DNA from: Oligoflexia bacterium
GTDB taxonomy: Bacteria > Bdellovibrionota > UBA1018
Direction: 5' to 3'
NCBI GenBank assembly: GCA_903881565.1
Contig: CAIRTR010000130.1
Coordinates: forward strand, 1-61,227
DNA: 61,227 nt
The stretch's first letter is position 1, and every line of letters starts with the position of its first letter. The translations under genes were made by a program, and so were the position numbers. The notes beneath the pieces were generated by a model. That model was not told the DNA's origin, searched no databases, and saw nothing but the letters and a program-made list of their open reading frames with translations. Below, in pieces: positions 17,701 through 60,549 of this stretch.

Positions 17701-17710
17701 TGCCTGCGGT

Positions 17711-18151: not shown

Positions 18152-18228
18152 GGCGGCAGTTTACCGCAAGAATATTTTAGAAAGCAAGTCCTCATGTTTC
18201 AGGATACTGTTGAAAGAGGGAGAGAATC

Positions 18229-19578: not shown

Positions 19579-19590
19579 TCTGATCCACGC

Positions 19591-21323: not shown

Positions 21324-21669
21324 TCTTGATCCAAAGGTAGATGGCTAAAATTTCATCATCGCTCAACATCGGTGCAAGCGGTGGCATCGATCCGTCGCTG
21401 ACGACTGTGTAGAGGTGACTTTTTTCAGGATCCCCGACCCGCACAGTCTCAAGAAGTGCGTGATGACTTGAGAAACTATCTTCGCCACCGCCTCCATGAC
21501 ATTGGGAACATTTGGGCAAGATGATGTGGTCTTGAATAGAAGTATAAGTCGCCTGCACGACAGACTCGGCACTAAGCTCTTGATTTTTGAGCGTATACCC
21601 ACAGCCACATCCGAAAACCGCTAGCCCTAAAACGAAACCAAATAACGGCAAGTATTTGAAATTTAGCAT
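21304..21669 (-). CDS. Small mono-haem c-type cytochrome domain lipoprotein (PSCyt1-like; cassette 1)
   Basis: The ATG at 21669 is preceded by AAGGTGG. Lipoprotein-like LAVFGCGCG. CSQCH, then VGDPEKSHLY...GSMPP...LSDDEILAIYLWIKNGA is the Planctomycete-type cytochrome C (PSCyt1) domain pattern. Confidence 0.75.
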   Translation of the reverse strand: MLNFKYLPLFGFVLGLAVFGCGCGYTLKNQELSAESVVQATYTSIQDHIILPKCSQCHGGGGEDSFSSHHALLETVRVGDPEKSHLYTVVSDGSMPPLAPMLSDDEILAIYLWIKNGAKND

Positions 21670-22851: not shown

Positions 22852-24195
22852 ATGACAAAAGTGCCGCCTCGCAAAGTTAAGAAACTAAAAAAAATCCGCG
22901 AAGGCGCGCTTTCCAGAAGCTGGGCTCTCGCTAAGGTTTCGATGGCCGCGGGAGCCAAGGCGGCGTCTCATGCCGTGGGCACAGTGTTCTCCACGGAGGC
23001 TGATCAGCCCGATCGCCTCAAAGCGCTGTTGATGTCTCAGGTTGATTTACTGACCCGCGAATTAGGGCAGCTCAAAGGCAGTGCGATGAAGGTCGGGCAG
23101 ATGCTTTCGATGTACGGAGAGAAGTTTCTTCCACCCGAGGCAAATGCCTTACTCAAGTCTCTCCAGAGCCAGTCTCCTCCGCTCGAATGGGAAGCCATTG
23201 AAAAAGTATTGCGACGACAGCTCAGCATTAAGCAGCTTGCGCTTCTTGACGTTGACCCTGAGTCCATGGCAAGCGCTTCGCTTGGGCAAGTGCACCGCGC
23301 GCGGGTCAAGTCGAGCGGCAGATGGCTTGCCATGAAAATCCAATATCCGGGAGTGGATCAAGCGATCGAAGGCGATTTGAAGGCGTTGCGCTCGTTGTTG
23401 ACGTTGGCTAAGTTGATTCCGCGAAATATTGCGACCGATGAACTGTTTAAAGAAGTTCGGCAGATGCTTCATCAGGAGGTGGATTATTCTCGTGAGCTTG
23501 AACTCACTCAGGAGTTCCGTGCGGCGCTGAAGGATGACCCCCGCTTCATTATTCCAGAGCCGTTTCCGGAATTTTCGAGCTCAAGAGTTTTGACGACAAG
23601 CTTTGAGGAAGGAATCGCTGTCGATAGCCCGGAGATATTGGCACTCCCCCAGGAACGACGAAATGCCATAGGAGCTCTCGCACTTGATCTGTATTTTAAA
23701 GAGATCTTCACCCTCAAAATGATGCAGACGGATCCGCACTTCGGAAATTACCGAATCCGCTTGGGCACGAACGGTGAGCCTGATCGGATGGTGCTCTTTG
23801 ATTTTGGGGCCGTTAGAAAATTTCCACAGTCATTTTTAAAACCCTATTATGCGATGATTAAGGCCGCAGCTAACAAGGATAAAGAGGGCCTCCTGAAGGC
23901 GTCACGTCAGCTTGGATTTTTGGAAGAGGGAGATCCCGTAGAGCTTGATGAATATTTTGCTGAACTTGTTTTCTTGATCACCGAGCCTTTTAACGGCGAG
24001 TATGATTGGGGCGGTAGTGACTTACCTCAGCGCGTGGCGACCAAGGCTGGGCAGATGGCTTTGAAATTCAAACTCCGGGCTCCACCGCGAGAGATTTTGT
24101 TTTTGGATCGAAAAATGGGAGGAGTTTTTATTTTACTTTCGGTCCTTCAAGCACGTTTTGATGCGAGACCAGTGTTGGAGCCGTATCTGGTGTGA
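22852..24195 (+). CDS. ABC1/AarF/UbiB-family atypical kinase
   Basis: KVGQMLS, ASLGQVHRARV...AMKIQYPGV and TDPHFGNY (HPGN-like) motifs of the ABC1 kinase family. Confidence 0.9.
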   Translation: MTKVPPRKVKKLKKIREGALSRSWALAKVSMAAGAKAASHAVGTVFSTEADQPDRLKALLMSQVDLLTRELGQLKGSAMKVGQMLSMYGEKFLPPEANALLKSLQSQSPPLEWEAIEKVLRRQLSIKQLALLDVDPESMASASLGQVHRARVKSSGRWLAMKIQYPGVDQAIEGDLKALRSLLTLAKLIPRNIATDELFKEVRQMLHQEVDYSRELELTQEFRAALKDDPRFIIPEPFPEFSSSRVLTTSFEEGIAVDSPEILALPQERRNAIGALALDLYFKEIFTLKMMQTDPHFGNYRIRLGTNGEPDRMVLFDFGAVRKFPQSFLKPYYAMIKAAANKDKEGLLKASRQLGFLEEGDPVELDEYFAELVFLITEPFNGEYDWGGSDLPQRVATKAGQMALKFKLRAPPREILFLDRKMGGVFILLSVLQARFDARPVLEPYLV

Positions 24196-37493: not shown

Positions 37494-38840
37494 ATGAGAA
37501 GCTTTCTTCTTCTTTGCTTAGGCCTAATCACTTTTGCGACTCCACAGGCTTTTGCGAGTCCCCTAACACTCCCTCACTCCGTTATTTCTGATCTGCTATC
37601 AGAGTCTGTTCCTACCGCCTTTCCCCCTATCGACTTTCAGGCCGGAGATTTTGCCATTGAATGGGACAAATCCGCGCCCCAGGGCGTGCGTGCGTTTATC
37701 GAAAAACGAAGCATCCAATGGGTTCGTGTCAGTGAAATGCTGGTCCTGCCTCGGGCACGCCTCGCCGTTGAAGTCGATGGCGCCGAAAGCGGTCGCGCGC
37801 AAACCGGTGGCGGCACTCAATCGTTCGAGATTCAAGGAACGACCGGAAAAGCCTTCATCGCTGTGGCTCTCCTCTCGGGCCCAAAAAACCCGATCGATTT
37901 GAGCTGGACTCGTGCGGGCAAAAGGGAAACCGCTCGTGCGTTCATCAAATTCAAACCGCGAAGTGAGCTTAAGCCACCTTACCTGTTTTTGGACCATACA
38001 TGCTCACGCTTCGGTGTGAGCGCTAAAGTTGCGCAGTTTCAGTCCGATCAATGGGTTTTCGTCAGTTGTCGTTTTGCCGAAATCGAATCGGAGCATCATC
38101 GCTCGCAGGGACTCGAACTTTTTGTCTTTTGGGATGGCGTAGGTGAAACGATTAACATCGGAGGCCAACCCACACCGCAGACCTCTGACTCCGAATGGAC
38201 CCTCAGACTTCGCTCCGCTCCTGGCAGCATTCGGCTTGGTGCGGGACAAACCGATTTCACCCTCTCCTATTTTGCACAGGAGAATTGGCATCGCGGAAAC
38301 ATCGCGCTCGGCATTGGCCCTTACGCCTATTCATTTTCCGGAGCAGGACAGGACTTTTCGACCTGGACACTTTTTCCGACCGTCTACCTTTCCTACTTCA
38401 TTACCGAATCCATGCGAATGGTAACCTTCGGTGCAAGTCACGCCAGCTCGCGCGGCAATACGGATCTCGGAGTTTATCTGAGTACTGAATACGGCAAAAT
38501 TCTCGACAAACGCGTCACAATCAATCTGATGTTGGGTGGCCACCTCATTGGTTTCAAATCCGAGGGCCAATATTATCTGCGCGTCGGAGCACCCCAAGGC
38601 ATGGAAGTCGTCGTATCCGATGTTTTTGGCGCTGGCCACAATCTGATGTTGGGCGGTTTCATTTATCCCATGATCTCTGGAAAATCCTATACGAATGTCT
38701 GGCTTCGTTGGGGCACTTCGCAACTTTTCGGAGAGTTCAACTACATTGCCTGGGATGAAAAGGTTTACGAAAACCCATTCGCCTCACATAGCGTGGGGTT
38801 AACGATAGGGTTTCCGCTGAGTTTTGCGAAGTTTCTGTAG
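37494..38840 (+). CDS. Secreted hypothetical protein, possible outer-membrane protein
   Basis: Signal peptide (MRSFLLLCLGLITFATPQAFA). The C-terminal half has strand-like alternation and ends ...FPLSFAKFL. Confidence 0.65.
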   Translation: MRSFLLLCLGLITFATPQAFASPLTLPHSVISDLLSESVPTAFPPIDFQAGDFAIEWDKSAPQGVRAFIEKRSIQWVRVSEMLVLPRARLAVEVDGAESGRAQTGGGTQSFEIQGTTGKAFIAVALLSGPKNPIDLSWTRAGKRETARAFIKFKPRSELKPPYLFLDHTCSRFGVSAKVAQFQSDQWVFVSCRFAEIESEHHRSQGLELFVFWDGVGETINIGGQPTPQTSDSEWTLRLRSAPGSIRLGAGQTDFTLSYFAQENWHRGNIALGIGPYAYSFSGAGQDFSTWTLFPTVYLSYFITESMRMVTFGASHASSRGNTDLGVYLSTEYGKILDKRVTINLMLGGHLIGFKSEGQYYLRVGAPQGMEVVVSDVFGAGHNLMLGGFIYPMISGKSYTNVWLRWGTSQLFGEFNYIAWDEKVYENPFASHSVGLTIGFPLSFAKFL

Positions 38841-40380: not shown

Positions 40381-40396
40381 TGGCACGTGCGTTGCT
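40381..40396 (+). promoter_or_regulatory. Sigma54 (-24/-12) promoter TGGCACG-N4-TTGCT
   Basis: Read directly: TGGCACGTGCGTTGCT, with GG at 40382-83 and GC at 40394-95 (GG-N10-GC spacing). It lies 67 nt upstream of the ATG at 40463, and GGAG lies 7 nt before the ATG. Confidence 0.6.
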
Positions 40397-40462
40397 TTAA
40401 CACTGAACAAGTAAAGCGCTGCTTGGTTAAAAAAACACCCCAAACAAACACGGAGTAAATTA

Positions 40463-41437
40463 ATGAAAAAATACGGAACTATTTATCTCGAAATTATTAC
40501 CCTCACCCTCATTGCCCTTGCGCTTCCCACTGCCTGTGGCCAGCCCTTAGGCGGAAGTTCTGGAACAAATCCCACAGGCGCCGATGCAAGTACGGTCAAT
40601 TTCGGCCTACTTGCTCAAAACGTATTACAATCCAAGTGTACCACTTGCCACTCAGGGACTGGAGCTTCAGCAGGAGTTGATCTATCATCCTACGAGAGCA
40701 CCATGAAAACCGGGTCAGTCGTCGCGTATTACCCGGAGAAAAGCAGTCTCTATACCTCGACAAACTCAGGCTCGATGCAGCGAGGAGGCAGTCCGCTTTC
40801 GAAAACCGAAATCCAATACATTTACAATTGGATCAAGGCCGGAGCGCCAAAAGATGCCCTCGCTTCAAACGCATCTCCAGAAGGCACGACCTCAACGAGC
40901 TCCCCTCAGACCGCTCCCAGTGTAGGTTCTGAACCTACAGGGCTTCCCGTTTGTAAAGTCGACTCAAATTCGAAAACCAAACCCCGCGATAGAAATAGAG
41001 GGAAGGGCGAGGACAGCGACAATGACGACGAGGACAAGAATGATTTAGTCGAAACTGGAGTCACTCCAAACTGTGTACCTTCACCACTCCCGGCTCCAAG
41101 CCCGACAGCATTACCAAGCCCCACCCCAGTCCCAACACCAACACCAACGCCGACTCCTACACCAACGGCCGCCGCGACCTTCACCCAAGTGTTCAGCACC
41201 ATCGTGAAACCAAAATGCGCCACCTGTCACACGGGTTCCGGCTCTCCAATGGGTTATGATTTATCTTCTTACGCCCAAGTCATGGCAACGGGGAGTGTCG
41301 TAGCCGGCAGTGCGAGCGGAAGCCGTCTCTACACCTCGACGTCATCGGGCTCAATGCCTCCTTCAGGCACAAAACTCTCGGCCACTGAACTCAAGCTGAT
41401 TTCGGATTGGATCAACAGTGGCGCAGCCAATAACTAA
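40463..41437 (+). CDS. Lipoprotein-like di-domain c-type cytochrome (two PSCyt1-like domains joined by a low-complexity linker; cassette 2)
   Basis: Signal peptide plus ...LPTAC. CTTCH (40637..40651) and CATCH (41216..41230) are each followed by G-SVV..G....S-LYTST-SGSM...G-LS..E......WI..GA. The linker spans aa 133-238. Confidence 0.8.
   Translation: MKKYGTIYLEIITLTLIALALPTACGQPLGGSSGTNPTGADASTVNFGLLAQNVLQSKCTTCHSGTGASAGVDLSSYESTMKTGSVVAYYPEKSSLYTSTNSGSMQRGGSPLSKTEIQYIYNWIKAGAPKDALASNASPEGTTSTSSPQTAPSVGSEPTGLPVCKVDSNSKTKPRDRNRGKGEDSDNDDEDKNDLVETGVTPNCVPSPLPAPSPTALPSPTPVPTPTPTPTPTPTAAATFTQVFSTIVKPKCATCHTGSGSPMGYDLSSYAQVMATGSVVAGSASGSRLYTSTSSGSMPPSGTKLSATELKLISDWINSGAANN
41123..41167 (+). repeat. 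Thr-Pro codon microrepeat (TPVPTPTPTPTPTPT) within the cytochrome linker
   Basis: ACC CCA GTC CCA ACA CCA ACA CCA ACG CCG ACT CCT ACA CCA ACG, read directly. Coding low-complexity region. Confidence 0.8.
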
Positions 41438-41465
41438 ACCAAACAACAAAATGGAGAAATCAATA

Positions 41466-42086
41466 ATGCAGAATCAGAAAATAGATTGGATCACGAAACT
41501 CACCTTCACTTTATGGATAGCGGGAAGCTTCACCTCGAGCCTCGCTGCCCTTCCTCAGAAACAAAGTTGGAATCTCGATCCCACCAAAGACGAGGGAAAA
41601 GTTGAGTTTGTCGCAATCGGCAAACCCAGCCTGCTTAAGATTCACGGCGTTGGCGCAGCCCCTAAAGGAAACTTCGCCATCCAAGGATCTTCTGTCTCGG
41701 GCCGCGTCGAATTCGCCTTGCAAACCCTCGATTCAGGAATCGAAATGCGCGACAAGCACATGAAGGAGAAGTACTTGGAACTTGAAAAGTTTCCGGTCGC
41801 GACGCTTGAAATCAAAAACCTCATTTTGCCGCGGCCCGCACCTGAGGGAGATTTCGCAATGGAAGGGGTCGCTTTTGAAGGTCCTTTGACACTGCATGGA
41901 TTAACAAAACCTGTAAAAGGAACAGCCAAGATTGCCCGCGCGGGCGGCCAAATGTTAGTTGAAGCGGAGTTCGGTTTAAAAATTACGGACTTCGCAATAC
42001 CCATCCCGAACTTTGCCGGCATTGCGATAGCCGATGAGGTGAAAATTCATGTGGAATCAAAAGCAAGCAAGGTGGCTTCAAAATGA
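41466..42086 (+). CDS. YceI-like family protein, secreted (cassette 2)
   Basis: GGAGA lies 7 nt upstream of the ATG at 41466. GKVEFVAIG...LQTLDSGIEMRDKHMKEKYLELEKFPVATLEI...GPLTLHGLTKPV. Paralogue of 20685..21323. Confidence 0.85.
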   Translation: MQNQKIDWITKLTFTLWIAGSFTSSLAALPQKQSWNLDPTKDEGKVEFVAIGKPSLLKIHGVGAAPKGNFAIQGSSVSGRVEFALQTLDSGIEMRDKHMKEKYLELEKFPVATLEIKNLILPRPAPEGDFAMEGVAFEGPLTLHGLTKPVKGTAKIARAGGQMLVEAEFGLKITDFAIPIPNFAGIAIADEVKIHVESKASKVASK

Positions 42087-43197
42087 ACTGACCTCCACCC
42101 TAGTCATCGCCCTAACCATCACTCTCGGAGTGGCCACCCATCCCTCCGAGAGTTTTGCTTTTCCCGAAATGGTCAGACATGGCTATCAAAACTGCACGGC
42201 TTGCCACATCAGCACGAATGGCGGAGGCATCCTCACTCAATATGGCCGAGCTTTGTCTCGCGAAGTGATGAGCAGCTGGGGACAAGAGGGAGAAGAAAAT
42301 TTCCTCTATGGCGCAATTCCCCCTGTTAACTGGCTGGCACTTGGCGGTGATGTACAAACACTAAACATCACGCAACAAGACCGAGCTCCTCAGAGCCGTT
42401 TTATTCTGATGCACGCGGATCTTGAAGCTGCAGTGAACGTCGGCCAATTCACAGCAACCGGAACGCTGGGTTTGCTTGATAGCGCCATATTTCCAGAAGG
42501 CAATCATCTTATTAGCAGGCGCCACTATCTACGCTATCATCCAACAGACGAGCTCTTCTTTCGCGCCGGTCGCTTTAACCAAGCTTTTGGAATCAATACG
42601 GCCGAGCACGCGATGGTCACTAAACGAAGCTTAGGCTGGGACGAGGGATCGGAGTCCTATAATCTTGAAGGCTCGTGGATCGGTGAAAAGGTGAACGTTT
42701 ACGTCACCGGCAACTTTGGCAGACTCGACTCACCAAAGTTGAATCGTGACGTCGGAGTGACTGGAAGTTTAGCCTACGCGGCCGCAGAGAAAATAAAAAT
42801 AGGGAGCAGCTACTACTATGGAACTAACGATTTTGCTCGTCGAAATATTTTGGGTGGCTGGGGGATTGTTGGATTTACAAAAAAGATCGTTCTCCTGGGG
42901 GAATACGATCTTCAACGCTACTTCGCCGCCACAGCCATAGATCCGCAATGGGGATCAGTCGATTATCTCAAACTCGACGGCGAAGTCTTGCGTGGATTGC
43001 ATGTCTTTGCCACCCAGGAATACGCACAACTGAACTTCCTTGATAGCAATACCCAAACTTATGTTTATGGCATCGGAACCCAATTCTTTCCGCGGCCCCA
43101 TTTTGATTTTCAATTGGTTTTTCAAACGCGAGACAACGTCGGGACCGGTCTAGGGTTCAAGAACTGGGTGTTCTTCCTGCTTCATTATTATCTTTAA
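42049..43197 (+). CDS. Predicted outer-membrane beta-barrel protein with N-terminal CxxCH haem-c motif (cassette 2)
   Basis: GAGGTGA lies 6 nt upstream of the ATG. The signal peptide ends ...ESFA and the mature N-terminus is FPEMVRHGYQNCTACH (CTACH at 42193..42207). Strand-like sequence runs to the C-terminal FFLLHYYL. About 60% identical by eye to 19591..20685 over the first 65 or so mature residues. Confidence 0.75.
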   Translation: MWNQKQARWLQNELTSTLVIALTITLGVATHPSESFAFPEMVRHGYQNCTACHISTNGGGILTQYGRALSREVMSSWGQEGEENFLYGAIPPVNWLALGGDVQTLNITQQDRAPQSRFILMHADLEAAVNVGQFTATGTLGLLDSAIFPEGNHLISRRHYLRYHPTDELFFRAGRFNQAFGINTAEHAMVTKRSLGWDEGSESYNLEGSWIGEKVNVYVTGNFGRLDSPKLNRDVGVTGSLAYAAAEKIKIGSSYYYGTNDFARRNILGGWGIVGFTKKIVLLGEYDLQRYFAATAIDPQWGSVDYLKLDGEVLRGLHVFATQEYAQLNFLDSNTQTYVYGIGTQFFPRPHFDFQLVFQTRDNVGTGLGFKNWVFFLLHYYL

Positions 43198-43206
43198 GCC
43201 TAACGG

Positions 43207-44889
43207 CTAGTGACAGCGATCGCACCCACCGATACTACCCACACCATGTTGATAATATCCTTTTTTCCATGGCTTGGAGTTCTGGTGGCAAAAGAGACAA
43301 TCTCCCGCTTTCGCGTGCGAAAAATGATGTTCGCCCAATTTAGTAGGACGCTCTACCTCATGGCATTCCCCACAGTTACGTTTGGGAGCCGGATTGTGCC
43401 CGAAAACCGCGCCCGACCAATTTGGGGCGGCCTTCTTATGGCATCCGATGCAGTCTCCCGATCCAAAAGTCTCATGATCAAATCGCTTGACGACGCCGAT
43501 CGGAGCTCCCGTGTTATGACAAGGAAAGCAAGACGCTTCGAGCGTGCCGCCGGCTGAATGCTGAAACTTCCAATTCGAAACGCCGGAGTTCTTGGACACA
43601 TGACAAAGATTACAATCTTTGTCGCCAAAATGGCTCAAAACGGTAGGCTTAGGTGCTGAAGGATTAACGGTTGGGAAAATAGTTTTGTCTGGCCGTTTCT
43701 GCTCATGACAATTCGAACACGTTTTCAAAGTCGAATTTTGAGCAGGATGAGGACTCACGGCTTTCCAACTTTTCCCCACTTCCAAATGGCATCCCAGACA
43801 ATCCACGCTGCCATAATGCGAAGATACGGGCCGGCGCGCCTCATGGCAGCTTGCACACTCCGAGAGGCCCCTGGGATGAACATAAACCGTGCGACTCCAA
43901 GGCTGATTAAATTGATGACAGCTCAGGCAATCCCCAGCCTTCTGATGCGAAAATCCATGTGTGACTGCAGGTGGGCGATTCGCTTCGTGGCATGGCAAAC
44001 AAGATTGCACCGGTGCCGGATCATGTTTGAACACGCCCCCACTCCACACCTTGCTGTCCTGGTGACACTTGAAACAATCTCCGGCTCCGAAAACCTGATG
44101 AGTAAAGCGCCCGATCATCGCCTCAGGGCGTTTATCCGCATGACAAGGCAAACAGGATTTCAGGGAATTCTGATTTGCCGAGTGGGTGTAAACGAATTTG
44201 CCACCTTCAACCGTCCGAGACTCGTGACAAAGAATGCAATCATCCGCACCAAAGTGCCCGGGCTGCTTCTGCGTCACTTGCGGTCTATCGCGCTCATGAC
44301 AGCCGTTACAATTTACGGGGACTGGATTGTTCTGGGGATGAGGTGAACTTGTCGACTGCGCCCAACTCCGAGTTGAGTCAAGGTGACAGCTTGCGCAGTC
44401 CTGCCCGGCAAAATGATCCGGCGATTTTCTGCGAGACTCATGGCACGGCAAGCAGGTCGCTATCGAGCGAAGTTCAAAATTCTTATGCGTAAAACGAAAT
44501 CCGACATCCTGATTTTGACCCGCTTCATGGCAAGAAAAGCAATCTTGCTTACCGAAATGTTCGGGCTTCGGCCGATTGACCTCGTGACATAAAACGCAGG
44601 AACTCGGCAATGGCTTATGAGTGAAGTTCTGTAAGGCTTTCCAACTTGGCCCGATTCTGTGGCAAATCGCGCAGTCCGCGCTTTGCCCATGGGGAACACC
44701 CGCAACCGGCGCGGGGCGAAGGGTTTCGTGGCAACTTGAGCAAGACTGTTCCGCCACGATCGCATGAGAAAACTTCGCTACTTTTGATGCTTCATTTGTG
44801 ACCGCAGGCTGTTCTAAAAAGTTACACCCCTGAGAAAATATCCCAGACAAAAAGAGCGCGACTAATGCGGCTGAAACCCAGATTTTCAT
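43207..44889 (-). CDS. Multihaem c-type cytochrome with 21 CxxCH motifs, lipoprotein-like signal
   Basis: I counted 21 CxxCH motifs in 560 aa. Ten tandem dihaem units follow the pattern CxxCHExxRP...HFGxxDCxxCH (Paired_CXXCH-like). The last motif, CDRCH, is the C-terminus. The N-terminus is MKIWVSAALVALFLSGIFSQGC. Confidence 0.9.
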   Translation of the reverse strand: MKIWVSAALVALFLSGIFSQGCNFLEQPAVTNEASKVAKFSHAIVAEQSCSSCHETLRPAPVAGVPHGQSADCAICHRIGPSWKALQNFTHKPLPSSCVLCHEVNRPKPEHFGKQDCFSCHEAGQNQDVGFRFTHKNFELRSIATCLPCHESRRKSPDHFAGQDCASCHLDSTRSWAQSTSSPHPQNNPVPVNCNGCHERDRPQVTQKQPGHFGADDCILCHESRTVEGGKFVYTHSANQNSLKSCLPCHADKRPEAMIGRFTHQVFGAGDCFKCHQDSKVWSGGVFKHDPAPVQSCLPCHEANRPPAVTHGFSHQKAGDCLSCHQFNQPWSRTVYVHPRGLSECASCHEARRPVSSHYGSVDCLGCHLEVGKSWKAVSPHPAQNSTLKTCSNCHEQKRPDKTIFPTVNPSAPKPTVLSHFGDKDCNLCHVSKNSGVSNWKFQHSAGGTLEASCFPCHNTGAPIGVVKRFDHETFGSGDCIGCHKKAAPNWSGAVFGHNPAPKRNCGECHEVERPTKLGEHHFSHAKAGDCLFCHQNSKPWKKGYYQHGVGSIGGCDRCH

Positions 44890-45737
44890 TTAATCTCTTG
44901 AAAGCGCAGCGCACTCAAACCTTTGAGATCCACTTGGCTGGTGTAATAATAGAGCTTAATGAGACCATAGGTATCGGCGCAAAGGGCTTCATCCCAGTTT
45001 TTGATGCACTGATCTTCTTGCTCAGGAGTCGCATACTCAGGAGAGTCAAAAGCGCGTCTCACACTGAAACGCTCCTCGTTTGAGCAATCCTTTTCGGTTT
45101 TTGCATCGACCGTGTTTCCGTTGATCAAAAGAAAATCATCATCCTTACAGGCTCCCTCAGGAACCAGCAAATTGAACGCCGTTTCAAATCGCGCCATTCC
45201 CAATTCGACTCCGATAGCCGAATCCCCAGCGCCCAGATCTAAAATGTGAATTCCGTTATGAGACAAGAAACGAGCAGCGGCGCCGTAAATAAAGCCAATG
45301 GTGGCATTGATTCCTGTAAAATGTCCTGAAAAATCCCCGACCGTTTTGCCGTTAAGATGAGTGACGCTCATACTAAAATTACGAGTTTCTGTAAGAAAGC
45401 CGACACCGGTTCCAAACCCCGGGAGTCCGCGCATGTTAAAAGCGATTCGGTAATTCACGCCCACTTTCGGGCTTTCGCATTCCAAAAAAAACTGAAATTG
45501 ATCAAAGGTGACGCCGCCAATTACGGCGGCACCACTGGATTGAATTCCTAAGCTGCCATGATCATAACTCCGGATTTTGCATGATTCGTAGGGAAGTATC
45601 CCTGGATGAGCTTTGCCCCACAGTGAACCCTTGATGGGAAGATACTCTTGAGGCTCGTCAGCAAAGACGTGAAAAGAGGTAAGACTCAGGAACAAAACTG
45701 ATAGTAACTGTACAAATTCAGTCGAACGGTATTTCAT
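44886..45737 (-). CDS. Secreted hypothetical protein, translationally coupled to the multihaem cytochrome
   Basis: Its stop overlaps the cytochrome ATG (4-nt overlap at 44886..44889). MKYRSTEFVQLLSVLFLSLTSFHVFA is a signal peptide when started at 45737 (alternatives are 45761, or the GTG at 45863). Gly-rich beta-like core, Cys-containing C-terminal region. Confidence 0.6.
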   Translation of the reverse strand: MKYRSTEFVQLLSVLFLSLTSFHVFADEPQEYLPIKGSLWGKAHPGILPYESCKIRSYDHGSLGIQSSGAAVIGGVTFDQFQFFLECESPKVGVNYRIAFNMRGLPGFGTGVGFLTETRNFSMSVTHLNGKTVGDFSGHFTGINATIGFIYGAAARFLSHNGIHILDLGAGDSAIGVELGMARFETAFNLLVPEGACKDDDFLLINGNTVDAKTEKDCSNEERFSVRRAFDSPEYATPEQEDQCIKNWDEALCADTYGLIKLYYYTSQVDLKGLSALRFQEIK

Positions 45738-45865
45738 ACAGCGAGAGGCATACCCCTTCATGGCTGTGCGCGTCAAGCCAATTAAACCCTCCTGGATGAA
45801 TCTGCACCCGTTGTTCAAATTTTGCTTTTCTGTTCTAATGACCGAGGAACAGATGAAAAACACGG

Positions 45866-46675
45866 ATGGGAGCGCAAGCTTTGAAATTGATTAAGATTTT
45901 AACTAAGGTGGGTTTTATTCTCCCATTGCTTGTTCCCTCTGATTTAATCGCCCAAGAACTTTCGGCCCCCTTAGACGGCCCCCATAGCCCCTACACCGAC
46001 TGGACCATAAAGGCCGCCACTCACTGGCCGCCACCCTGGCTCAGTTTCGCAAAAATCGAAGGCACCCCCGTTCAACTCGAGCTCATCGAGACCCAAGGCA
46101 ATGAGTTCTACATCGGCGTACAGCAACTCATGTGGGTGAACGCTTCGCTCGAGAGCGTCGAGGCCGTTCTGGATAACTTCAAAGGCTACCAGGAGATTTT
46201 TCCAGATCTAGATGACGTTCACGTTGTATCGCGCGCCGGAAACACTTTTGTCACATTTTGGGAGCAGCATATTCCGGTCTTCTTTGTGCCCAATGTGAAA
46301 TTTGAAATGAACTACGTCGTGGAAAAATCAAACCCCGATCGAACGATTTATCGCTACCAGCTTAAAAAAGGCGAGCATATCAAGAAGAACGACGGCCTGA
46401 TTGTGATCGAACGAGACAAAGCGCCGGACGGAAAGGCGCTCACACGCTACAGCGAATTCGATTTTTATGACGCCGATTGGGGGCCCCTCAAGACCTTCGC
46501 GCCCGGCCGCATCTGGAAAGACAGCGTGGAGGGAATCTACGTTTCCGACTTGGCCGTAAAACTCAAAGCCGAAAACCCCACCTGGCCCAATAAAAAGGTC
46601 AAAGAAGAAAGCGCGAAGTTAATGGAGAAGAACCCGATAGACGCTGTGTTGAAAGTACGAAAGAAAGCGCCTTAG
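45866..46675 (+). CDS. Secreted hypothetical protein, possibly SRPBCC/START-like lipid-binding fold
   Basis: Signal-like N-terminus. LESVEAVLDNFKGYQEIFPDLDDVHVVSRAGNTFVTFWEQHIPVFFVPNVKFEMNY resembles the start of START/SRPBCC domains. The fold call is tentative. Confidence 0.55.
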   Translation: MGAQALKLIKILTKVGFILPLLVPSDLIAQELSAPLDGPHSPYTDWTIKAATHWPPPWLSFAKIEGTPVQLELIETQGNEFYIGVQQLMWVNASLESVEAVLDNFKGYQEIFPDLDDVHVVSRAGNTFVTFWEQHIPVFFVPNVKFEMNYVVEKSNPDRTIYRYQLKKGEHIKKNDGLIVIERDKAPDGKALTRYSEFDFYDADWGPLKTFAPGRIWKDSVEGIYVSDLAVKLKAENPTWPNKKVKEESAKLMEKNPIDAVLKVRKKAP

Positions 46676-47805: not shown

Positions 47806-49461
47806 CTATTCACGAACTGCGTACGAATCAATATGAAAGCCAAACTCTTCGTTCTCGGAATCCGAACGCAAACTAATTTCCACCGTATCGCCTTCAATAG
47901 GACGACTCCAAACAGCGCCCTGATTGCGATTAAATGACTCGATAAATTTTTGATTTGCTCCACGAATAATCACGCCATCCATGCGCTCGGCGGTGACTAA
48001 GTTGCTAAAATGGACCTTGATAAACTTCGCCCCGGGATGTGTGATCTTCCAAGTCTGATTTGAAAGCGCAGGATAGGGATGGGGTGAATCTGCTTCGTAA
48101 CTGACATGTTTCCAGCCATCAGGATCCGAAACAACAGGAGTCTGAATGTTCATCAACGCATTATAAAGATTCAGGCGTCCACCACTGGCGACCCGATCTT
48201 GTAAAACAAAACGGTGATCCACCGTCGCCATCAAACGTTCTTTGACTTCAAGCGCACTTAAGCCCTGCGCGCTCTTGAGCAAAGCGGCTGCGCCCGCAAC
48301 ATGGGGACACGCCATCGAAGTTCCACTCATGCTCTTGTATTGTCCGTCTTTAAAGTCGCTCCAAATATTCAGCCCCGGTGCCGCGAGATGAACGCTGGTT
48401 GGACCCCAACTTGTGAAAATCGTGACGTCATCATTGCTATCGGTTGCCGCCACCGAAATGATATTGGGAACCTGATAACTTGCAGGATACGTAGGTTCGG
48501 TATCATTGTTATTGTGATCGTTTCCTGCGGCCGCAACGTAAATGATTCCACGTTTGTTGGTTTCTTCGATCACTTCCAAGAACGCTTTTGAAAATCCGTC
48601 CCCGCCCCAGCTGTTGCTCATCACATCAGCCTTGTTGATCATGGCGTATTCGGTGGCGAGGATTCCGTTCTCTAACGTCCCGTCGCCGCCTGCGCCCAAA
48701 AATTTAACCGGCATAATTTTGACGTTTGGAGCAATCCCCATGATGCCCACGCCATTGTGAGCGCCAGCAATCACGCCCGCGCAATGCGTTCCATGGCCCA
48801 TGTCATCGTTGGGATTTGCACTTTTGCTATAGAAGTTCCAACCGTGCTGATCGTCGATATAACCGTTGCCGTCGTTATCAATTCCGTCAGCACCGCTAGC
48901 CCCCCCTGTCGGAATTTCGCCAGGGTTTGTCCAAATATTATTCACAAGATCAGGGTGGGTAAGATCCACGCCCGTGTCAATGACTGCGACCACGACGTTA
49001 TCTCGGCCCTTTGAAATATCCCACGCGCGTTGCGCTTCAATGGACTTCAAGCCCCACTGTTTATCAAAAAGCGGGTCAGGAGCTGTTTCCAAGGCATTTC
49101 CCAATGCGTGGTAGATAAAGTTAGGTTCAATGTATTCAATGAGACCACTTTTCTCGTACTGGGCAATCGTATTGCTCAAGGCCATTCCCGTGCGAAGTGC
49201 CTCGGGCAGACGAATCACTTGAAACTGTTTAAAAACGCGAAAATCCGAGCGCGCCTCAACTCCAAGTTGAGTATGGAGTGTGCGCAGCGCCGCAAGGTGT
49301 AACCCTTTTGTCTGCTTGAGTCGAACCACATATTCGCCTGGAACAGCCTCAGGGGCCTTATGCAAAGCGCGACGGTTTTGAGAGACCAACCCCAAAGACG
49401 ACACCAAAATAATTGAAAATAGCCCGAAAAGGACGACGCGCTTGCGAAAAGTAGATTTCAT
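47806..49461 (-). CDS. S8 family serine peptidase (subtilisin-like) with I9 propeptide and a C-terminal beta-sandwich domain
   Basis: Catalytic triad motifs VAVIDTGVD, HGTHCAGVIAG and SGTSMACPHVAGAAALL. The C-terminal about 110 aa is CUB/PPC-like. Confidence 0.9.
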   Translation of the reverse strand: MKSTFRKRVVLFGLFSIILVSSLGLVSQNRRALHKAPEAVPGEYVVRLKQTKGLHLAALRTLHTQLGVEARSDFRVFKQFQVIRLPEALRTGMALSNTIAQYEKSGLIEYIEPNFIYHALGNALETAPDPLFDKQWGLKSIEAQRAWDISKGRDNVVVAVIDTGVDLTHPDLVNNIWTNPGEIPTGGASGADGIDNDGNGYIDDQHGWNFYSKSANPNDDMGHGTHCAGVIAGAHNGVGIMGIAPNVKIMPVKFLGAGGDGTLENGILATEYAMINKADVMSNSWGGDGFSKAFLEVIEETNKRGIIYVAAAGNDHNNNDTEPTYPASYQVPNIISVAATDSNDDVTIFTSWGPTSVHLAAPGLNIWSDFKDGQYKSMSGTSMACPHVAGAAALLKSAQGLSALEVKERLMATVDHRFVLQDRVASGGRLNLYNALMNIQTPVVSDPDGWKHVSYEADSPHPYPALSNQTWKITHPGAKFIKVHFSNLVTAERMDGVIIRGANQKFIESFNRNQGAVWSRPIEGDTVEISLRSDSENEEFGFHIDSYAVRE

Positions 49462-49702: not shown

Positions 49703-52399
49703 ATGAAATATCGTTTTGCTTTTCAACTTATGTTCTTCATTGCATCGGTCACCGCACCGGCGCTCGCATTTTTCACAATGCAAGGATGCAGTTCAAATCT
49801 ACTGCCGGATCAAATCCCAAATTTGATACCTAAACCCGCAGATCCGCCTCCGGCGCGAATCGACAATCCTGATCCTACGTCCTCTCCTCTTATTATCGAA
49901 CCCATCGCATCTCCCGATCCTCTCCCTACTTCTGAACCCATTGCAACACCGCTGCCTTCACCCTCTGGCCCTCAGTGCTCCACGCAGATTCTCGATTACG
50001 GACAAAAAGGGGTGCTCGCTACCGTTGCGCGCGGGACTTCATCGGATATCAAGATCCTCCCCGGGAGTTCTTGGATCGGCGTCGCCTATACAGACCCGGG
50101 AGCATTAAGCCTCAAATTTGCTTATGGCAAAGGCAGCGGTTTTCAAACCGAAGTCGTCTCAGGCGATGGCAATGCCCGCGATGTCAAACTGGGTTTCTTC
50201 ACTTCGGGAAGACCCATCATTATATGGTCTCAAAATACGGCATCTGGCTCCTTCCTCAAGGCCGCCTTTCGAAACGCGCCCGTAGGTGAAGCGGGAGACT
50301 GGTCTGCAGCCGTTCTCGAAACATCATCTCTCTCCGCACTAGCCGATTCGAAGTACGCGGCCGTGGAACTTGCGATCAGCGCTCAAGATGACCTGCTCTT
50401 CTCGTTTGTCTCAAACACCAAACAAGGTTGGCGGGCACGATTTGGCTCCTGCCTCGCGCCTTGCAAAGCGCCGCATGAGATCAACCTTATCGCCGCAATC
50501 CAAGACAAACCTTCGTTAGAACAAAGAAGTTCAGGCGCCGCATGGATCATCCCAAAAAGCGGAATCTCCTATCCCGCAATCACCTATTCGCTTGAGCACT
50601 CAACGGTGCTTTCGACCTGTACCGAAAGTCTCGAAAATTGTTTCAACACTCATGGCGACACCCAGGCTTGGCGACACCTCGAAGTTTCACCCGCCGCGAG
50701 TGTGACGAGCAACCTCTGGATGGAGCGCTCGAAAAAAATCGAACCCCTTCGAATTGCGATGAATAGCCCACAAGAAGGACTGCAAGTCGCGGAACTTGAG
50801 GCTCGCTGCGTGGACGATTCTTTCCAGGGCGCTCCATGTGCCATCAGGAAAAAGACGATCACCTCAGATCCCAAAATCGGAAACCGCTGGGTTAAAATAT
50901 TGCGAGACGATAATAGCAAATTTCACCTCACAGCTAATGAAGGAAACAAGGGGATATCGTATTTCAATTCTTCCAAGAGGGACCTGACAAAAGCCTGGAA
51001 CACACCGACGGAACTCGACTCTTCGGGATTCTCTGACCAAAGCCAAGGGGGAGCCGTTTTTGGTGAAGGCAAGAAAACGATCTTGATAAGCTACGGAATC
51101 AACGCCGCCCCCTACGACCTTAGACTCGGCGTGCTTGCAGATCCCAGCGCTCCCTCCGGCACAAAGCCCAGCCTTTCGAGTTACAGCGCGCGCGCGGTCG
51201 ATCTGACAGGTGGAATGCAACTCTCCGCTCGCAACGCCCAACGAAAACTCATCAGCACCCATCTTTCCGAAACGGGAGCCATGGGCGTCGCGTACATCGA
51301 TTATTCTTCGGGATCTGCTCGGCAGGGAAAGCTCAAATTTGCTTATCAAGATCCGGCTTCGAACTGGCAATCTTTCTCACCTCCGGTGAGCGTTAGCCCC
51401 CAACAACCGGTTCTGAAGTTTGATTCCCAGAATCATCCTTGGATTGGCTACTACGACTCTGGCGACAATCTGTTCCACCTTGCCACGCGCGCTCCTTTGG
51501 AGGCGCATGAAGAGACTTCGCCCTGGAGCGTTTTTGAATTTCCCTTCAGACCGGGCCCAGAAGCTCCACTTCCCGCATCCAATGAAACTGCCTTGGTTTT
51601 CGAATCCAGCACGGGCCACCCACTTCCGATGCTCATCGTGATTGATAATTCCACTGTGAGAGCTAAAACTCTTCGAGCTGCGCATCTGGATCCTCAGACA
51701 GGTAATTGGTCTTGGACTGGAGCCGCAGGAAAAATCAAAATTCTCAGCGATCGAGGAGCAACGCATCTGAGTGCCGATGTCGACCTCACTGGAAACATCG
51801 GAGTGAGTTACTATGACCTCGACACTCACCTGCTCATGTTTAGCTCTTACAATTCCAAATTAGACCAGTGGCGGGCGCCACGGGCAATCAGCGCAGTCTA
51901 TCAAGGCGCCGGAGCCCACCTTCGCTTACATCCCGAGACTTTAGAACCCATGATCAGTTTCTATGATCGGGTTTCAGGCGAGCTTCTGTTTGGACATTGC
52001 AGAGCATCCCTTGAGGATTGCTCAACCGAAGCACCCTGGGAAATAACGGTTGTGGATTCGGCAAGTGGGATCGAAGGTATCCCTCGTGAGAGTGAGTCTT
52101 TGCTGGAAGCCTCTTTAGATTTTGACACACAGGGTTCCCCCCTCATCTTTTACCCCCGGGGCCAAGCGACCCAGGGCGCCCTGATGAAGGCGCGCCGAAT
52201 AAGCCCTCAGAGTGGCAGCTTTGAACTCTCGACCGTTTTCGAGGGGCAAAATACGCAGCTAAGCGGCACGCCTCTCATGCATTTTGCCCTATCCGGATGG
52301 AACGTGGCCGCCGCCGCCCGCCCCTTCTTTGGCTTTGGTGCATTTTTCGTTGGACCCGGAAACTGGCTTTACGGTACACGATGTGGAGATGAATTTTGA
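49703..52399 (+). CDS. Large (898-aa) lipoprotein with a Pro-rich linker and internal beta-propeller-like repeats
   Basis: Signal plus lipobox (FFTMQGC). The linker is P/S/T-rich. Recurrent strand motif: GVAYTD..., GVAYIDYSS...KLKFAYQD, IGYYDSGDNLFHLA, GVSYYDLDTHLLMFS, ISFYDRVSGELLFG. Confidence 0.8.
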   Translation: MKYRFAFQLMFFIASVTAPALAFFTMQGCSSNLLPDQIPNLIPKPADPPPARIDNPDPTSSPLIIEPIASPDPLPTSEPIATPLPSPSGPQCSTQILDYGQKGVLATVARGTSSDIKILPGSSWIGVAYTDPGALSLKFAYGKGSGFQTEVVSGDGNARDVKLGFFTSGRPIIIWSQNTASGSFLKAAFRNAPVGEAGDWSAAVLETSSLSALADSKYAAVELAISAQDDLLFSFVSNTKQGWRARFGSCLAPCKAPHEINLIAAIQDKPSLEQRSSGAAWIIPKSGISYPAITYSLEHSTVLSTCTESLENCFNTHGDTQAWRHLEVSPAASVTSNLWMERSKKIEPLRIAMNSPQEGLQVAELEARCVDDSFQGAPCAIRKKTITSDPKIGNRWVKILRDDNSKFHLTANEGNKGISYFNSSKRDLTKAWNTPTELDSSGFSDQSQGGAVFGEGKKTILISYGINAAPYDLRLGVLADPSAPSGTKPSLSSYSARAVDLTGGMQLSARNAQRKLISTHLSETGAMGVAYIDYSSGSARQGKLKFAYQDPASNWQSFSPPVSVSPQQPVLKFDSQNHPWIGYYDSGDNLFHLATRAPLEAHEETSPWSVFEFPFRPGPEAPLPASNETALVFESSTGHPLPMLIVIDNSTVRAKTLRAAHLDPQTGNWSWTGAAGKIKILSDRGATHLSADVDLTGNIGVSYYDLDTHLLMFSSYNSKLDQWRAPRAISAVYQGAGAHLRLHPETLEPMISFYDRVSGELLFGHCRASLEDCSTEAPWEITVVDSASGIEGIPRESESLLEASLDFDTQGSPLIFYPRGQATQGALMKARRISPQSGSFELSTVFEGQNTQLSGTPLMHFALSGWNVAAAARPFFGFGAFFVGPGNWLYGTRCGDEF

Positions 52400-58383: not shown

Positions 58384-60549
58384 ATGTTTAGTTCCAAAAT
58401 GCTCACCGTTCTCGGTTTTTTGGCTTTTTCAGCAACAATGAGCTTCGCAGGTGACACCCTTCACCTCCAGGTCGGCAAACGAAAGCTCCAGCCGTTTTCA
58501 GTCAACGGATTCTCCCTCTTTTCCCAACAGCAGTTCAACGTACAACCCAACATGAATTCGACGCTGAAAAAAACTTTTGTCGTTCAATTCAAGAATCGGG
58601 TAAGCGAAAATCAAAAGGACACGCTTCTCAAGCAAGGCATCGAAACCAAGCGCTATCTGCCTGATGATGCTTTAATCGTGCAAGGCACGGCGGATGCGGT
58701 GCTGCTTGCAGGAACCACGAACGCAGAGATTCACGGAATTTCTGTTTTTGAACCCGAATGGAAAATCAGTCGCGAACTTTCAAGCCCCCGCGCCCACGCA
58801 AGGCATGCCCAGCAGATATTGATTTCAACTTTAAACAAAGGTGAAGCCAAAGCTGTGGCCCGCGCGCTTAAGTCCTCAGCCGAAATTAGAGTTCTTTTTA
58901 TAGGCTCGCAAGACTTAGTCGTTGAGTGCCACCTCGAGTCTCTGCAGAAGATCGCGCAACTTGATGAGGTCGAGTGGATTCAGAAACTCCCGGTCCTCGA
59001 GAGTTTGGATTTTAATCCCGAATTTACCTCAAAATTGGATGACCCCAATGCCAGTCCCAGTGGCGAAACACCTCCTCCTACTCCTCCTGAGTTAAACGGC
59101 TATGAATCCGGAACCAAAATCATGGGATTTGAAGCAGCCTGGGCCCGTGGTTTTCATGGCGAAGGCCAAACCGTCGGAATGGCTGACACCGGTGTCGACA
59201 CTGGAAACCTCAGAGCCCTTCACCAAGATCTCGGCGGCGTGACTGCAGGCTTTGCGCTCGGCATGGGCGGCGATAGCTGGGAAGATCCTAATGCTCACGG
59301 CACCCACGTTTGCGGCTCCGTCATCGGATCAGGTCGCGCATCTGAAGGCCACATCCGCGGCGGAGCTTACGCTGCGTCGATGGTTGTTGAAGGCCTCTGG
59401 AGTCCGATTCTCAATAACCTCGCATTTGACCAAGATGCGAATAGACTTTTTGGAACGGCATTTAAGGCTGGCGTTCGCATTCACACCAACTCTTGGGGGA
59501 ACCCTTCCAATCCCGGCGCCTATGATTCGCTCGCTTCACGCGTGGATGAATACCTCTGGAACAACCCCACAATGCTTGTGCTTTTTGCAGCAGGTAATGG
59601 CGGCCAAGACCTTAATAAAGATGGCCGAATTGATGAAGGCTCCATTCTTACGCCCGGAACTGCCAAAAACGTGCTGACCGTCGGCGCATCGGAAAACCTT
59701 TTTTCGGGCGGCGGAATCCAAGCTCCTCTTGGAAAACTCAAAGGAGGAATGGAAAAGTGGGGAGTGGCCCCACTGGTTACGGACCTCCTTTCGGACAACC
59801 CAGATGGTCTCGCCGCATTCAGCTCACGCGGTCCGACCTCCGATGGCCGCATCAAGCCAGAGATCGTCGCTCCCGGCACCAACATCGTAAGCACCCGCTC
59901 ACACCACAAAGATGCCACGGCACTTTGGGGAATCTACAACGCTGAATACCTCTACTCAGGCGGGACATCAATGGCAACTCCTCTGACTGCCGGTGCAGCT
60001 GCGGTCGCAAGACAGTATCTCATGAGCAAGCGCAATCAGGGCGATCCCTCGGGCGCACTTGTCAAAGCGGCAATTTTACATACAGCTAAAGATCTTTATC
60101 CAGGCCAATACGGAACAGGTCCTACGCAGGAGCTCCCAAAACCTCGTCCCAATGTTCATGAAGGTTATGGCCGAGTCGATATGGATTTGATGACCAACCT
60201 CCCTGCCAACACTTCGATCATTGATGACAAGGCGGGGGCAGGACTTAACGAAGAGAAGTCGATTGCCTTCACACTTAAAACCGCTGGAGGAATTCGCGCC
60301 ACCCTCGTCTACACCGATGCTCCCGGCGCCGCTTCTTCGAGTAAACTTCTGGTCAATGATTTGGATCTACAAATAACGGGTCCTACGAAAAAAATATCGA
60401 GCTTGGGCGATCACACGAACAACAACGAGATGATCGAAATGAAAAACCTCCAACCGGGAACCTACAAAGTTTCGGTGATGGGGATTAATATTCCACAAGG
60501 CAAGAACGGGAAACAACCCTACGCTTTGATCGTCAGCGAGACACACTAA
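58384..60549 (+). CDS. S8 family serine peptidase (subtilisin-like) with propeptide and C-terminal PPC/P-domain-like region
   Basis: GGAGGG lies 6 nt upstream of the ATG at 58384. Signal peptide present. Triad motifs MADTGVDTGN, HGTHVCGSVIG and GGTSMATPLTAGAAAV. Confidence 0.9.
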   Translation: MFSSKMLTVLGFLAFSATMSFAGDTLHLQVGKRKLQPFSVNGFSLFSQQQFNVQPNMNSTLKKTFVVQFKNRVSENQKDTLLKQGIETKRYLPDDALIVQGTADAVLLAGTTNAEIHGISVFEPEWKISRELSSPRAHARHAQQILISTLNKGEAKAVARALKSSAEIRVLFIGSQDLVVECHLESLQKIAQLDEVEWIQKLPVLESLDFNPEFTSKLDDPNASPSGETPPPTPPELNGYESGTKIMGFEAAWARGFHGEGQTVGMADTGVDTGNLRALHQDLGGVTAGFALGMGGDSWEDPNAHGTHVCGSVIGSGRASEGHIRGGAYAASMVVEGLWSPILNNLAFDQDANRLFGTAFKAGVRIHTNSWGNPSNPGAYDSLASRVDEYLWNNPTMLVLFAAGNGGQDLNKDGRIDEGSILTPGTAKNVLTVGASENLFSGGGIQAPLGKLKGGMEKWGVAPLVTDLLSDNPDGLAAFSSRGPTSDGRIKPEIVAPGTNIVSTRSHHKDATALWGIYNAEYLYSGGTSMATPLTAGAAAVARQYLMSKRNQGDPSGALVKAAILHTAKDLYPGQYGTGPTQELPKPRPNVHEGYGRVDMDLMTNLPANTSIIDDKAGAGLNEEKSIAFTLKTAGGIRATLVYTDAPGAASSSKLLVNDLDLQITGPTKKISSLGDHTNNNEMIEMKNLQPGTYKVSVMGINIPQGKNGKQPYALIVSETH

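Follow-up and report, generated by a model that had tools for sequence, protein, structure and literature searches.

The stretch of Oligoflexia bacterium DNA analysed here (contig CAIRTR010000130.1, 61,227 nucleotides (nt), hereafter the window) carries three tightly packed genes that encode a c-type cytochrome lipoprotein, a YceI-family lipocalin and an outer-membrane porin with a fused monohaem cytochrome domain, and these three genes are the real unit, a conserved and unannotated module found across the Bdellovibrionota. The initial annotation of the window had described a sigma54-driven cytochrome c/YceI/haem-barrel operon that would act together with a convergent 21-haem cytochrome operon as a new type of redox or lipid-quinone conduit. 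The distinct three-gene family on which that proposal was built stands; however, the architecture of its barrel was already known from the iron-oxidizing protein Cyc2, and the 21-haem operon does not belong to the system. It is probable, though by no means assured, that the module works as a Cyc2-type relay in which a single haem exchanges electrons across the outer membrane with a cytochrome c lipoprotein of the periplasm, YceI being a quinone- or isoprenoid-binding accessory made in stoichiometric amounts.

The first gene of this cassette (cassette 1; gene i, 40463..41437, plus strand) encodes a dihaem c-type cytochrome of 324 amino acids (aa) that is a probable lipoprotein, with a Cys present past the signal sequence. 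The two CxxCH motifs assigned to it initially, CTTCH and CATCH, are both present, and the product matches Pfam Cytochrome_CBB3 (2.9e-9) and PSCyt1 (1.5e-8), the two domains of this type being separated by a Pro/Thr/Asp-rich linker; two stretches of the protein also match the NCBIfam model LIC11213_lipo, both under the model cutoff. Gene ii (41466..42086, plus strand; alternative starts ATG 41451 and GTG 41418), described before as YceI-like, encodes a secreted lipocalin that belongs to the YceI family of Pfam (PF04264; E=2.2e-18; score 67.5 bits, cutoff 23.7). Gene iii (42049..43197, plus strand, 382 aa) encodes the barrel protein, a fused monohaem cytochrome and predicted 16-strand outer-membrane porin recognised by its CxxCH motif, its AlphaFold2 model and Foldseek comparison. 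The map of open reading frames (ORFs) confirmed the position of gene iii, its 38-nt overlap with gene ii and its N-terminal haem-c motif, which is the only CxxCH of the protein and lies past a signal-like N-terminus. By inspection, the signal peptide comprises a basic n-region, a hydrophobic core and an A-x-A-type site before FPEMVR, as do the aligned homologues, and the CxxCH begins 12 residues past the predicted cleavage site. An Rfam scan of the window returned zero matches.

The barrel protein belongs to a large, unannotated and undescribed family. The cassette 1 barrel had been taken to fall outside characterised families, and it indeed matched nothing in Pfam or NCBIfam, even at E<=10, and nothing useful among the sequences of the PDB. 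A homologue search returned 216 matches, every one labelled "hypothetical" and drawn from metagenome-assembled genomes (MAGs) of Bdellovibrionota/Oligoflexia, and an exhaustive profile search yielded, after clustering at 50% identity, 2,357 representatives, of which 747 scored E<=1e-30; the best 150 of the 2,357 matches all fell inside the barrel family. A tblastn search of plasmids with the barrel gave spurious matches only, and its match in Fischerella lay on the strand opposite the annotated gene. The haem motif was proposed to be conserved among homologues, and exactly one CxxCH is present in all 240 full-length family members (240/240), within the first 110 residues in 239, as part of the conserved block [FY]PE[ML][VI]RHGYxNCxxCHxSPxGGGxLxxYGR. 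Three further residues of the barrel part, M121, H187 and H351, are at least 98% conserved among the same 240 members, and H187 would lie in an L3-like loop between beta5 and beta6 of the model.

Structure prediction likewise bore out the barrel. AlphaFold2, run with a 34-sequence alignment, gave 16 beta-strands over residues 96-381 with a predicted local distance difference test (pLDDT) score of 82 and a predicted template modelling score of 0.77. The top PDB matches found by Foldseek with this model were 16-strand porins, namely OmpT/OmpU, OprP and OmpF/OmpC, with E values of about 1e-11 to 1e-9 (OprP, 2o4v, E=1.3e-10), and weak matches to Pfam Porin_O_P were present in 13 of the 34 members. 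A fold of this kind could also serve an ordinary diffusion porin, the N-terminal CxxCH of which would be a metal-binding or disulfide motif instead of a haem c site. Haem attachment to the barrel is predicted from the motif, and the N-terminal segment of about 50 residues is modelled at low confidence, both of which favour such a porin; however, the C-x-x-C-H is invariant with a conserved flanking block, c-type cytochrome genes consistently accompany the barrel gene, and the same arrangement in Cyc2 binds haem and oxidizes Fe(II) (PMC8406198), such that this explanation is extremely unlikely.

The composition of the module was determined from gene neighbourhoods in the best 80 of 152 confirmed loci, from a genome scan that used one genome per species; almost all of these 80 loci are labelled Bdellovibrionota or carry older or generic names. 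A YceI gene adjoins the barrel gene in 71/80 loci and lies immediately upstream on the same strand in 64/80, in 54/80 the barrel gene has a gene i-type cytochrome c gene no more than 3 kb away, and both partners are present in 49/80. Unsupervised clustering of all flanking ORFs returned a core of exactly the barrel, YceI and cytochrome c, in 80, 72 and 59 loci, respectively. Furthermore, the YceI stop codon lies less than 75 nt ahead of the codon for the mature N-terminus of the barrel in 40 of 57 loci, and therefore the overlap or abutment of these two genes seen in the window is conserved. Altogether, these data indicate that the synteny expected of the YceI and cytochrome c genes with the barrel gene holds outside the window, and that the initially proposed grouping of cytochrome c, YceI and haem-barrel is a real module.

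The cytochrome partner is the most variable component of the module. The partner cytochromes of the barrel bear one to three haems, and a lipobox-like motif is found in 34 of 52 homologues. Enlarged cassette cytochromes c with four to five CxxCH motifs are encoded in loci L011 (761..2488, minus strand) and L078 (5562..6968, plus strand), and the cassette cytochrome c of L001/L002 bears a TIG (Ig-like) domain. A 209-aa secreted protein also recurs near the cassette, in 13 loci.

A second, paralogous cassette, overlooked in the initial annotation, is located at 19591..21669 on the minus strand, about 20 kb from cassette 1. It encodes a monohaem cytochrome c of 121 aa that is a probable lipoprotein (21304..21669, minus strand; Cytochrome_CBB3 5.6e-6, one CxxCH, N-terminus ...AVFGCGC), a YceI protein of 212 aa (20685..21323, minus strand; PF04264 2.4e-19, 70.6 bits) the gene of which overlaps the cytochrome gene by 20 nt, and a monohaem cytochrome-porin of 364 aa (P0048; 19591..20685, minus strand) the gene of which overlaps the YceI gene by 1 nt. 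The two barrels of the window are 45% identical over 362 aa (E=8e-105), and neither a multihaem neighbour nor an upstream sigma54 site was found for cassette 2. The 80 loci divide about evenly between those nearer to copy 1 and those nearer to copy 2, and five MAGs supply two loci each. The occurrence of two copies in the window and of two loci in each of five genomes suggests that the module matters to these predators.

The surroundings of cassette 2 connect the window to a described organism. The window, which itself stems from metagenome assemblies in the ENA, runs collinear over 10118..21633 with a Bdellovibrionota bacterium FG-2 contig, the two sharing 71-79% of their nucleotides, and in this collinear context the copy 2 barrel shares 81% identity with the FG-2 orthologue. 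FG-2, a MAG of a magnetotactic bacterium in the class UBA1018 ("Bdellonasia"), was recovered from an anoxic ferruginous spring; it encodes cbb3 and bd oxidases as well as an MtrAB-like operon, and for the related FG MAGs a pool of cytochrome c is reported alongside cbb3/bd oxidases (PMC13200544). A 411-aa ORF without a Pfam match (18343..19578, plus strand) adjoins the copy 2 barrel gene in the window; it is missing at the matching place of the otherwise collinear FG-2 contig (L039), so that the two genomes differ here by an insertion or deletion. An OsmC-like (peroxiredoxin-type) gene (17711..18151, minus strand) and an ABC1/UbiB-type atypical kinase gene (22852..24195, plus strand) flank cassette 2, the latter gene belonging to a family linked to ubiquinone biosynthesis. 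These flanks are suggestive of a quinone or oxidative-stress theme, and neither gene is among the recurrent neighbours in the other loci.

If the module is a Cyc2-type relay, the barrel would reside in the outer membrane with its covalent haem in or at the mouth of the pore, and M121, H187 or H351 would be the candidates for the sixth haem ligand. A small redox-active solute would reach the barrel haem, with Fe(II) as the leading candidate given the analogy to Cyc2 and the ferruginous sediment inhabited by the nearest relative. Single electrons would then pass, in either direction, between the barrel haem and the periplasmic lipoprotein cytochrome c, which would connect to the respiratory chain, that is, to cbb3/bd oxidases and a cytochrome c pool of the kind encoded by the FG MAGs. 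YceI and the barrel would be made in a fixed ratio because their reading frames overlap. YceI proteins bind ubiquinone-8 (UQ-8) or polyisoprenoids, in solved homologues inside a lipocalin barrel of 8 strands, and act with haem proteins (PMC9113575, PMC8981238), and the cassette 1 YceI is a distant match to the solved YceI proteins 3hpe, 7bwl and 1y0g, from which isoprenoid/UQ-8 binding is predicted. The cassette YceI would carry a UQ-8-type isoprenoid quinone or some other lipid of the polyisoprenoid class, and the protein could be a second two-electron/one-electron redox buffer beside the haems or a lipid chaperone needed at the barrel.

The haem-porin could alternatively take part in iron acquisition or handling, as a ferric reductase or an Fe(II) gate that would set the redox state of iron on its way through the outer membrane, for assimilation or, in magnetotactic relatives, for magnetite formation, with the cytochrome c supplying or removing electrons. 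A redox centre in a porin channel would suit redox-gated uptake, the nearest relative is a magnetotactic inhabitant of ferruginous sediment, and genes with a relation to metals occur around the cassettes. In 5/80 loci the cassette has a Peripla_BP_2 gene (siderophore/cobalamin-type binding protein) as a neighbour. Genes for metal homeostasis, namely a CsoR/RcnR-type repressor (L005, L029, L004, L007, L047 and L051) or a heavy-metal P-type ATPase bearing an HMBD domain (L008, L042, L051, L063 and L066), occur no more than 5 kb from the cassette in 10/80 loci, a weak hint of metals that would suit the Cyc2-type relay as well. However, the recurrent neighbours include no TonB-dependent receptor and no Feo- or Ftr-type transporter, and the family is widespread in non-magnetotactic Bdellovibrionota; a role in iron acquisition is thus improbable.

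A sigma54-type -24/-12 element, TGGCACGTGCGTTGCT, is located at 40381..40396 on the plus strand, where a consensus sigma54 promoter had been annotated initially; it matches TGGCAC-N5-TTGCW perfectly and is the sole zero-mismatch sigma54 site on both strands of the window. The element lies 67 nt ahead of the ATG at 40463, a spacing expected of a sigma54 operon, and no sigma70-like match was found in the intergenic region upstream of 40463. Cassette 1 is probably under sigma54 control in the lineage of the window, and transcription from this promoter would make its expression conditional on an enhancer-binding protein. None of the signatures GAFTGA, ESELFGH and GE[ST]G[TSV]GK was found in six-frame translations of the window, which agrees with the earlier statement that the window holds no sigma54-activator gene, and the activator may lie elsewhere in the genome. 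Among the 80 loci, L003, which is the closest relative of copy 1, is the only other one with a perfect element, and there it is identical at 15/16 positions including the spacer, despite flanks that cannot be aligned. Locus L047 has a site with one mismatch, and relaxed matches were observed four times against 2.8 expected, which is background. Sigma54 control was therefore rejected as a trait of the family: the description "sigma54-driven" is correct for the site before cassette 1, but as a property of the module it fails, being lineage-specific.

The operon convergent with cassette 1 encodes a 560-aa c-type cytochrome with 21 CxxCH motifs (43207..44889, minus strand) and an orphan secreted protein of 283 aa (44886..45737, minus strand). 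The 9-nt gap between the stop codons of gene iii and the 21-haem gene (43198..43206), the number of CxxCH motifs and the 4-nt overlap of the two minus-strand genes are all as first described. A secreted protein is encoded at 45866..46675 (plus strand), and for this ORF, which had been called START/SRPBCC-like, the match is weak and sub-threshold (Polyketide_cyc2, E=4e-4, 21 bits against a cutoff of 27.4), although the ORF itself is present. The 21-haem operon had been proposed as part of the system, with the SRPBCC-like gene listed beside it; however, because neither the 21-haem gene and its secreted partner nor the SRPBCC-like gene occurs in any of the 80 related loci (0/80), all three are placed outside the module, and the 21-haem operon is a separate, organism-specific feature. 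An integrated conduit composed of the barrel, YceI, the small cytochromes, the 21-haem lipoprotein, the secreted partner and the SRPBCC protein would be in keeping with the 9-nt convergent gap, with the fact that all of these are secreted redox or lipid-binding proteins, and with the proposed use of iron as an electron acceptor via multihaem systems by relatives of the organism (PMC13200544). Such a conduit is nonetheless very improbable. Any nearby ORF with at least four CxxCH motifs occurs in only 2/80 loci, the 283-aa protein is an orphan, cassette 2 stands without a multihaem neighbour, and the convergent orientation implies that the 21-haem operon is transcribed separately.

The 21 CxxCH motifs of the large cytochrome are spaced 19-35 aa apart, or about one haem per 27 residues, in repeats of the type CxxCHE..RP....HFG..DCxxCH. 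The protein matches Cytochrome_C7/CIII/Paired_CXXCH, a match to the DmsE family falls under the cutoff, no relative was found among PDB sequences, and the N-terminus ...IFSQGC is a doubtful lipobox. The 283-aa protein returned a match only to itself among 5.8 billion proteins, was blank in Pfam and NCBIfam, and gave an unusable single-sequence AlphaFold2 model (pLDDT 37); the base composition of this operon showed no sign of a foreign island. Two further secreted proteins without Pfam matches are encoded nearby, one of 448 aa (37494..38840, plus strand) that ends in ...SFAKFL and is possibly another outer-membrane barrel, and a probable lipoprotein of 898 aa (49703..52399, plus strand); neither is conserved beside the cassette elsewhere. 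Secreted subtilisin-family proteases are encoded at 47806..49461 (minus strand) and 58384..60549 (plus strand), with Pfam Peptidase_S8 confirmed for the second only, and the presence of two such proteases fits a predatory Bdellovibrionota genome.

Predatory bacteria are rarely credited with electron transfer at the outer membrane, and Cyc2 is the main marker gene for mapping microbial iron oxidation. For FG-2, which carries the cassette, FeGenie detected no iron genes under its default settings (PMC13200544). If the family handles iron, environmental surveys would be blind to it over a whole phylum, as the family, with its 2,357 clusters, fails the published motifs. A more demanding version of the relay, in which quinone-loaded YceI is an obligate third component between the periplasmic cytochrome c and a Cyc2-like haem-porin and the whole is an unrecognised class of outer-membrane redox conduit in Bdellovibrionota, is decidedly unlikely. 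If it were true, a protein-carried quinone would be an electron carrier at the outer membrane, and supposedly strictly organoheterotrophic predators, magnetotactic ones included, would gain a capacity to oxidize Fe(II) or other metals or to quench radicals that is invisible to FeGenie-type surveys. YceI proteins are ubiquitous and poorly understood, and an outer-membrane haem partner coupled to one of them offers a new, tractable context for the redox activity of the bound quinone.

Several known systems share parts of this arrangement. The conduits MtrCAB, MtoAB, PioAB and Geobacter Pcc likewise use a barrel and c-type haem to cross the outer membrane; however, in these systems a haem-free barrel of 26-28 strands sheathes a separate decahaem (or larger) cytochrome, whereas the cassette barrel is predicted to have 16 strands, bears its own fused haem motif and has no conserved multihaem partner, and the module is not of this type. 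Cbp2D and Cbp2E of Cellvibrio japonicus and Saccharophagus degradans (Branch et al. 2021, PMC8981238) combine a YceI-like X158 domain, which binds UQ-8 in Cbp2D, with c-type cytochrome domains (X183/X132; two such domains are fused to X158 in Cbp2D), and they resemble the cassette in pairing a YceI-like quinone module with monohaem c-type modules for extracytoplasmic electron transfer. In contrast to the separate proteins and barrel of the cassette, Cbp2D and Cbp2E each unite their domains, carbohydrate-binding modules included, in one secreted protein that feeds lytic polysaccharide monooxygenases, and neither such modules nor such enzymes occur in the context of the cassette. The combination of genes in the window had been thought to match no characterised system. 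This holds for the three-gene family, which is undescribed, but not for the pairing of YceI with a cytochrome, which was already known from Cbp2D (PMC8981238) and from LcoA-BcnA (PMC9113575); no paper in the library searched was found that joins Cyc2 with YceI, or YceI with Bdellovibrio.

In the LcoA-BcnA system and the E. coli pair yceJ-yceI (Naguib et al. 2022, PMC9113575), a secreted YceI lipocalin is genetically coupled to a haem protein, as in the cassette, and the isoprenoid quinone bound by YceI is proposed to be redox-cycled by the haem partner. BcnA (YceI) and the cytochrome b561 LcoA detoxify lipid peroxyls through a proposed UQ-8 redox cycle (PMC9113575). The module may by analogy be an envelope antioxidant system, in which YceI-bound ubiquinol quenches lipid peroxyl radicals or other oxidants at the outer membrane and c-type cytochromes take the place of b561 as recyclers. 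YceI is the partner most tightly linked to the barrel, with overlapping frames, and proteobacterial BcnA, which is linked or fused to a haem protein, guards against membrane lipid peroxidation (PMC9113575). The OsmC and ABC1/UbiB-type kinase genes beside cassette 2 would suit the same theme, and since canonical Cyc2 iron oxidases need no YceI, its linkage here speaks against simple Fe(II) oxidation. On the other hand, LcoA is an inner-membrane dihaem b-type cytochrome whereas the cassette has c-type partners, one a lipoprotein and the other fused to an outer-membrane porin, and no cytochrome b561 is encoded in the cassettes or among the recurrent neighbours, which sets the module apart from LcoA-BcnA and yceJ-yceI. 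The LcoA-BcnA model also has no need of a haem-bearing pore, OsmC and ABC1 do not recur, and the cassette YceI is only distantly related to the BcnA type (E of about 1e-2 against PA0423, and likewise against E. coli YceI). An antioxidant function is possible but on balance unlikely.

The closest counterpart is Cyc2, in which a signal peptide and one CxxCH are combined with a 16-strand OprO/P-like porin, for which OprP is the reported template, and which has been shown to oxidize Fe(II) (PMC8406198). The criteria for Cyc2 also include Fe(II) oxidase activity and a redox potential of about +200 mV. The premise of the initial annotation that known porin-cytochrome conduits use haem-free barrels was therefore wrong, as Cyc2 is itself a fused monohaem cytochrome and 16-strand porin (PMC8406198). 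Cyc2 is found in Acidithiobacillus ferrooxidans, Mariprofundus ferrooxydans PV-1, Gallionellaceae and Chlorobi (Keffer et al. 2021, PMC8406198), and its defining motifs are AxPxFAR[Q/K][T/Y] before the haem site and PxL after it (PMC8406198). In the pathway model, electrons pass from Cyc2 in the outer membrane to the periplasmic dihaem cytochrome Cyc1 and on to an oxidase (PMC7029218), and gene i likewise encodes a dihaem cytochrome c. For comparison, a canonical set was assembled by retrieving loci from metagenome contigs with motif-probe N-termini, which yielded 62 complete proteins of 414-496 aa that conform to the published criteria. One locus of this survey, L083 (ERZ25039551 contig_4751, 5001..10189), carries a canonical Cyc2-type gene with the N-terminus IPAFARKYNVACSACH that is fragmented in the assembly and lies just upstream of COX2/COX1, an order that recalls the rus operon of A. 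ferrooxidans.

Cyc2 and the barrel family have in common the signal peptide, the single CxxCH, the 16-strand OprO/OprP-like porin (predicted here), an adjacent gene for a periplasmic mono- or dihaem cytochrome c and, often, several copies per genome. The spacing of their mature N-termini is identical (x-P-x-hydrophobic-x-R, five residues, CxxCH), with Pro at mature position +2, Arg at +6 and CxxCH at +12..16. At the motif position the cassette 1 barrel reads AFPEMVRHG, which shares with the Cyc2 motif only the A, P and R and their spacing to the Cys. Past the haem site, the family reads CHxSPxGGGxL, with Pro at +3 in 220/240 members (CHISTNGGGIL in the window protein), and has three extra residues relative to Cyc2. 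The family is also shorter, at about 365-380 aa versus 414-496 aa, although most of its listed sequences span 355-380 aa; for the Cyc2 length criterion of at least 365 aa, copy 1 has 382 aa and copy 2, with 364 aa, falls one residue under. YceI, a near-obligate partner of the barrel family, is absent from canonical Cyc2 loci (0/81), and the barrel family, unlike Cyc2, was almost confined to Bdellovibrionota in the genome scan.

Several observations count against the Cyc2-type relay. The defining Cyc2 motifs, AxPxFAR[Q/K][T/Y] and PxL (+4), are found in 0/240 barrel members. A hidden Markov model of the 62 Cyc2 proteins, compared with the barrel family in both directions, gave at most 13.9 bits, which is insignificant. 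Alignment of the two profiles with hhalign reached 66-73% probability (P of about 3-6e-5) only when the signal peptides were included, and fell to P=0.009 for the mature regions and to P=0.024 for the barrels alone; a deep alignment of the cytochrome segment gave about 90% probability (P of about 1e-6). Controls in which the CxxCH was fixed and the flanks were shuffled scored 23 +/- 2-3, compared with 28-29 observed, and the unrelated cytochrome c of the cassette itself scored 28.9 against the barrel N-terminus. The 73% and 90% values were therefore rejected as signs of homology, as the controls attribute them mostly to the signal peptide and a generic CxxCH. In addition, the 81 canonical Cyc2 loci (421 kb) contained no YceI gene and no gene i-type cytochrome, so a role for YceI is not transferable from Cyc2. 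AlphaFold2 gave pLDDT <50 for the N-terminal haem segment (residues 31-60), which makes any placement of the haem a guess. Lastly, Bdellovibrionota MAGs are generally read as organoheterotrophic predators, and most members of the family come from lineages without a known iron-oxidizing lifestyle.

Taken together, these comparisons indicate that the barrel protein should not be filed as a member of the Cyc2 family on its sequence, although it may be a very remote relative. The layout, the predicted haem, the porin and the cytochrome neighbour are common to both, and for this reason the barrel protein is proposed to work like Cyc2. What was known before is the haem-bearing barrel, in the form of Cyc2; what is new is an undescribed and widespread family of such barrels with a YceI partner, two copies of which are present in the window.

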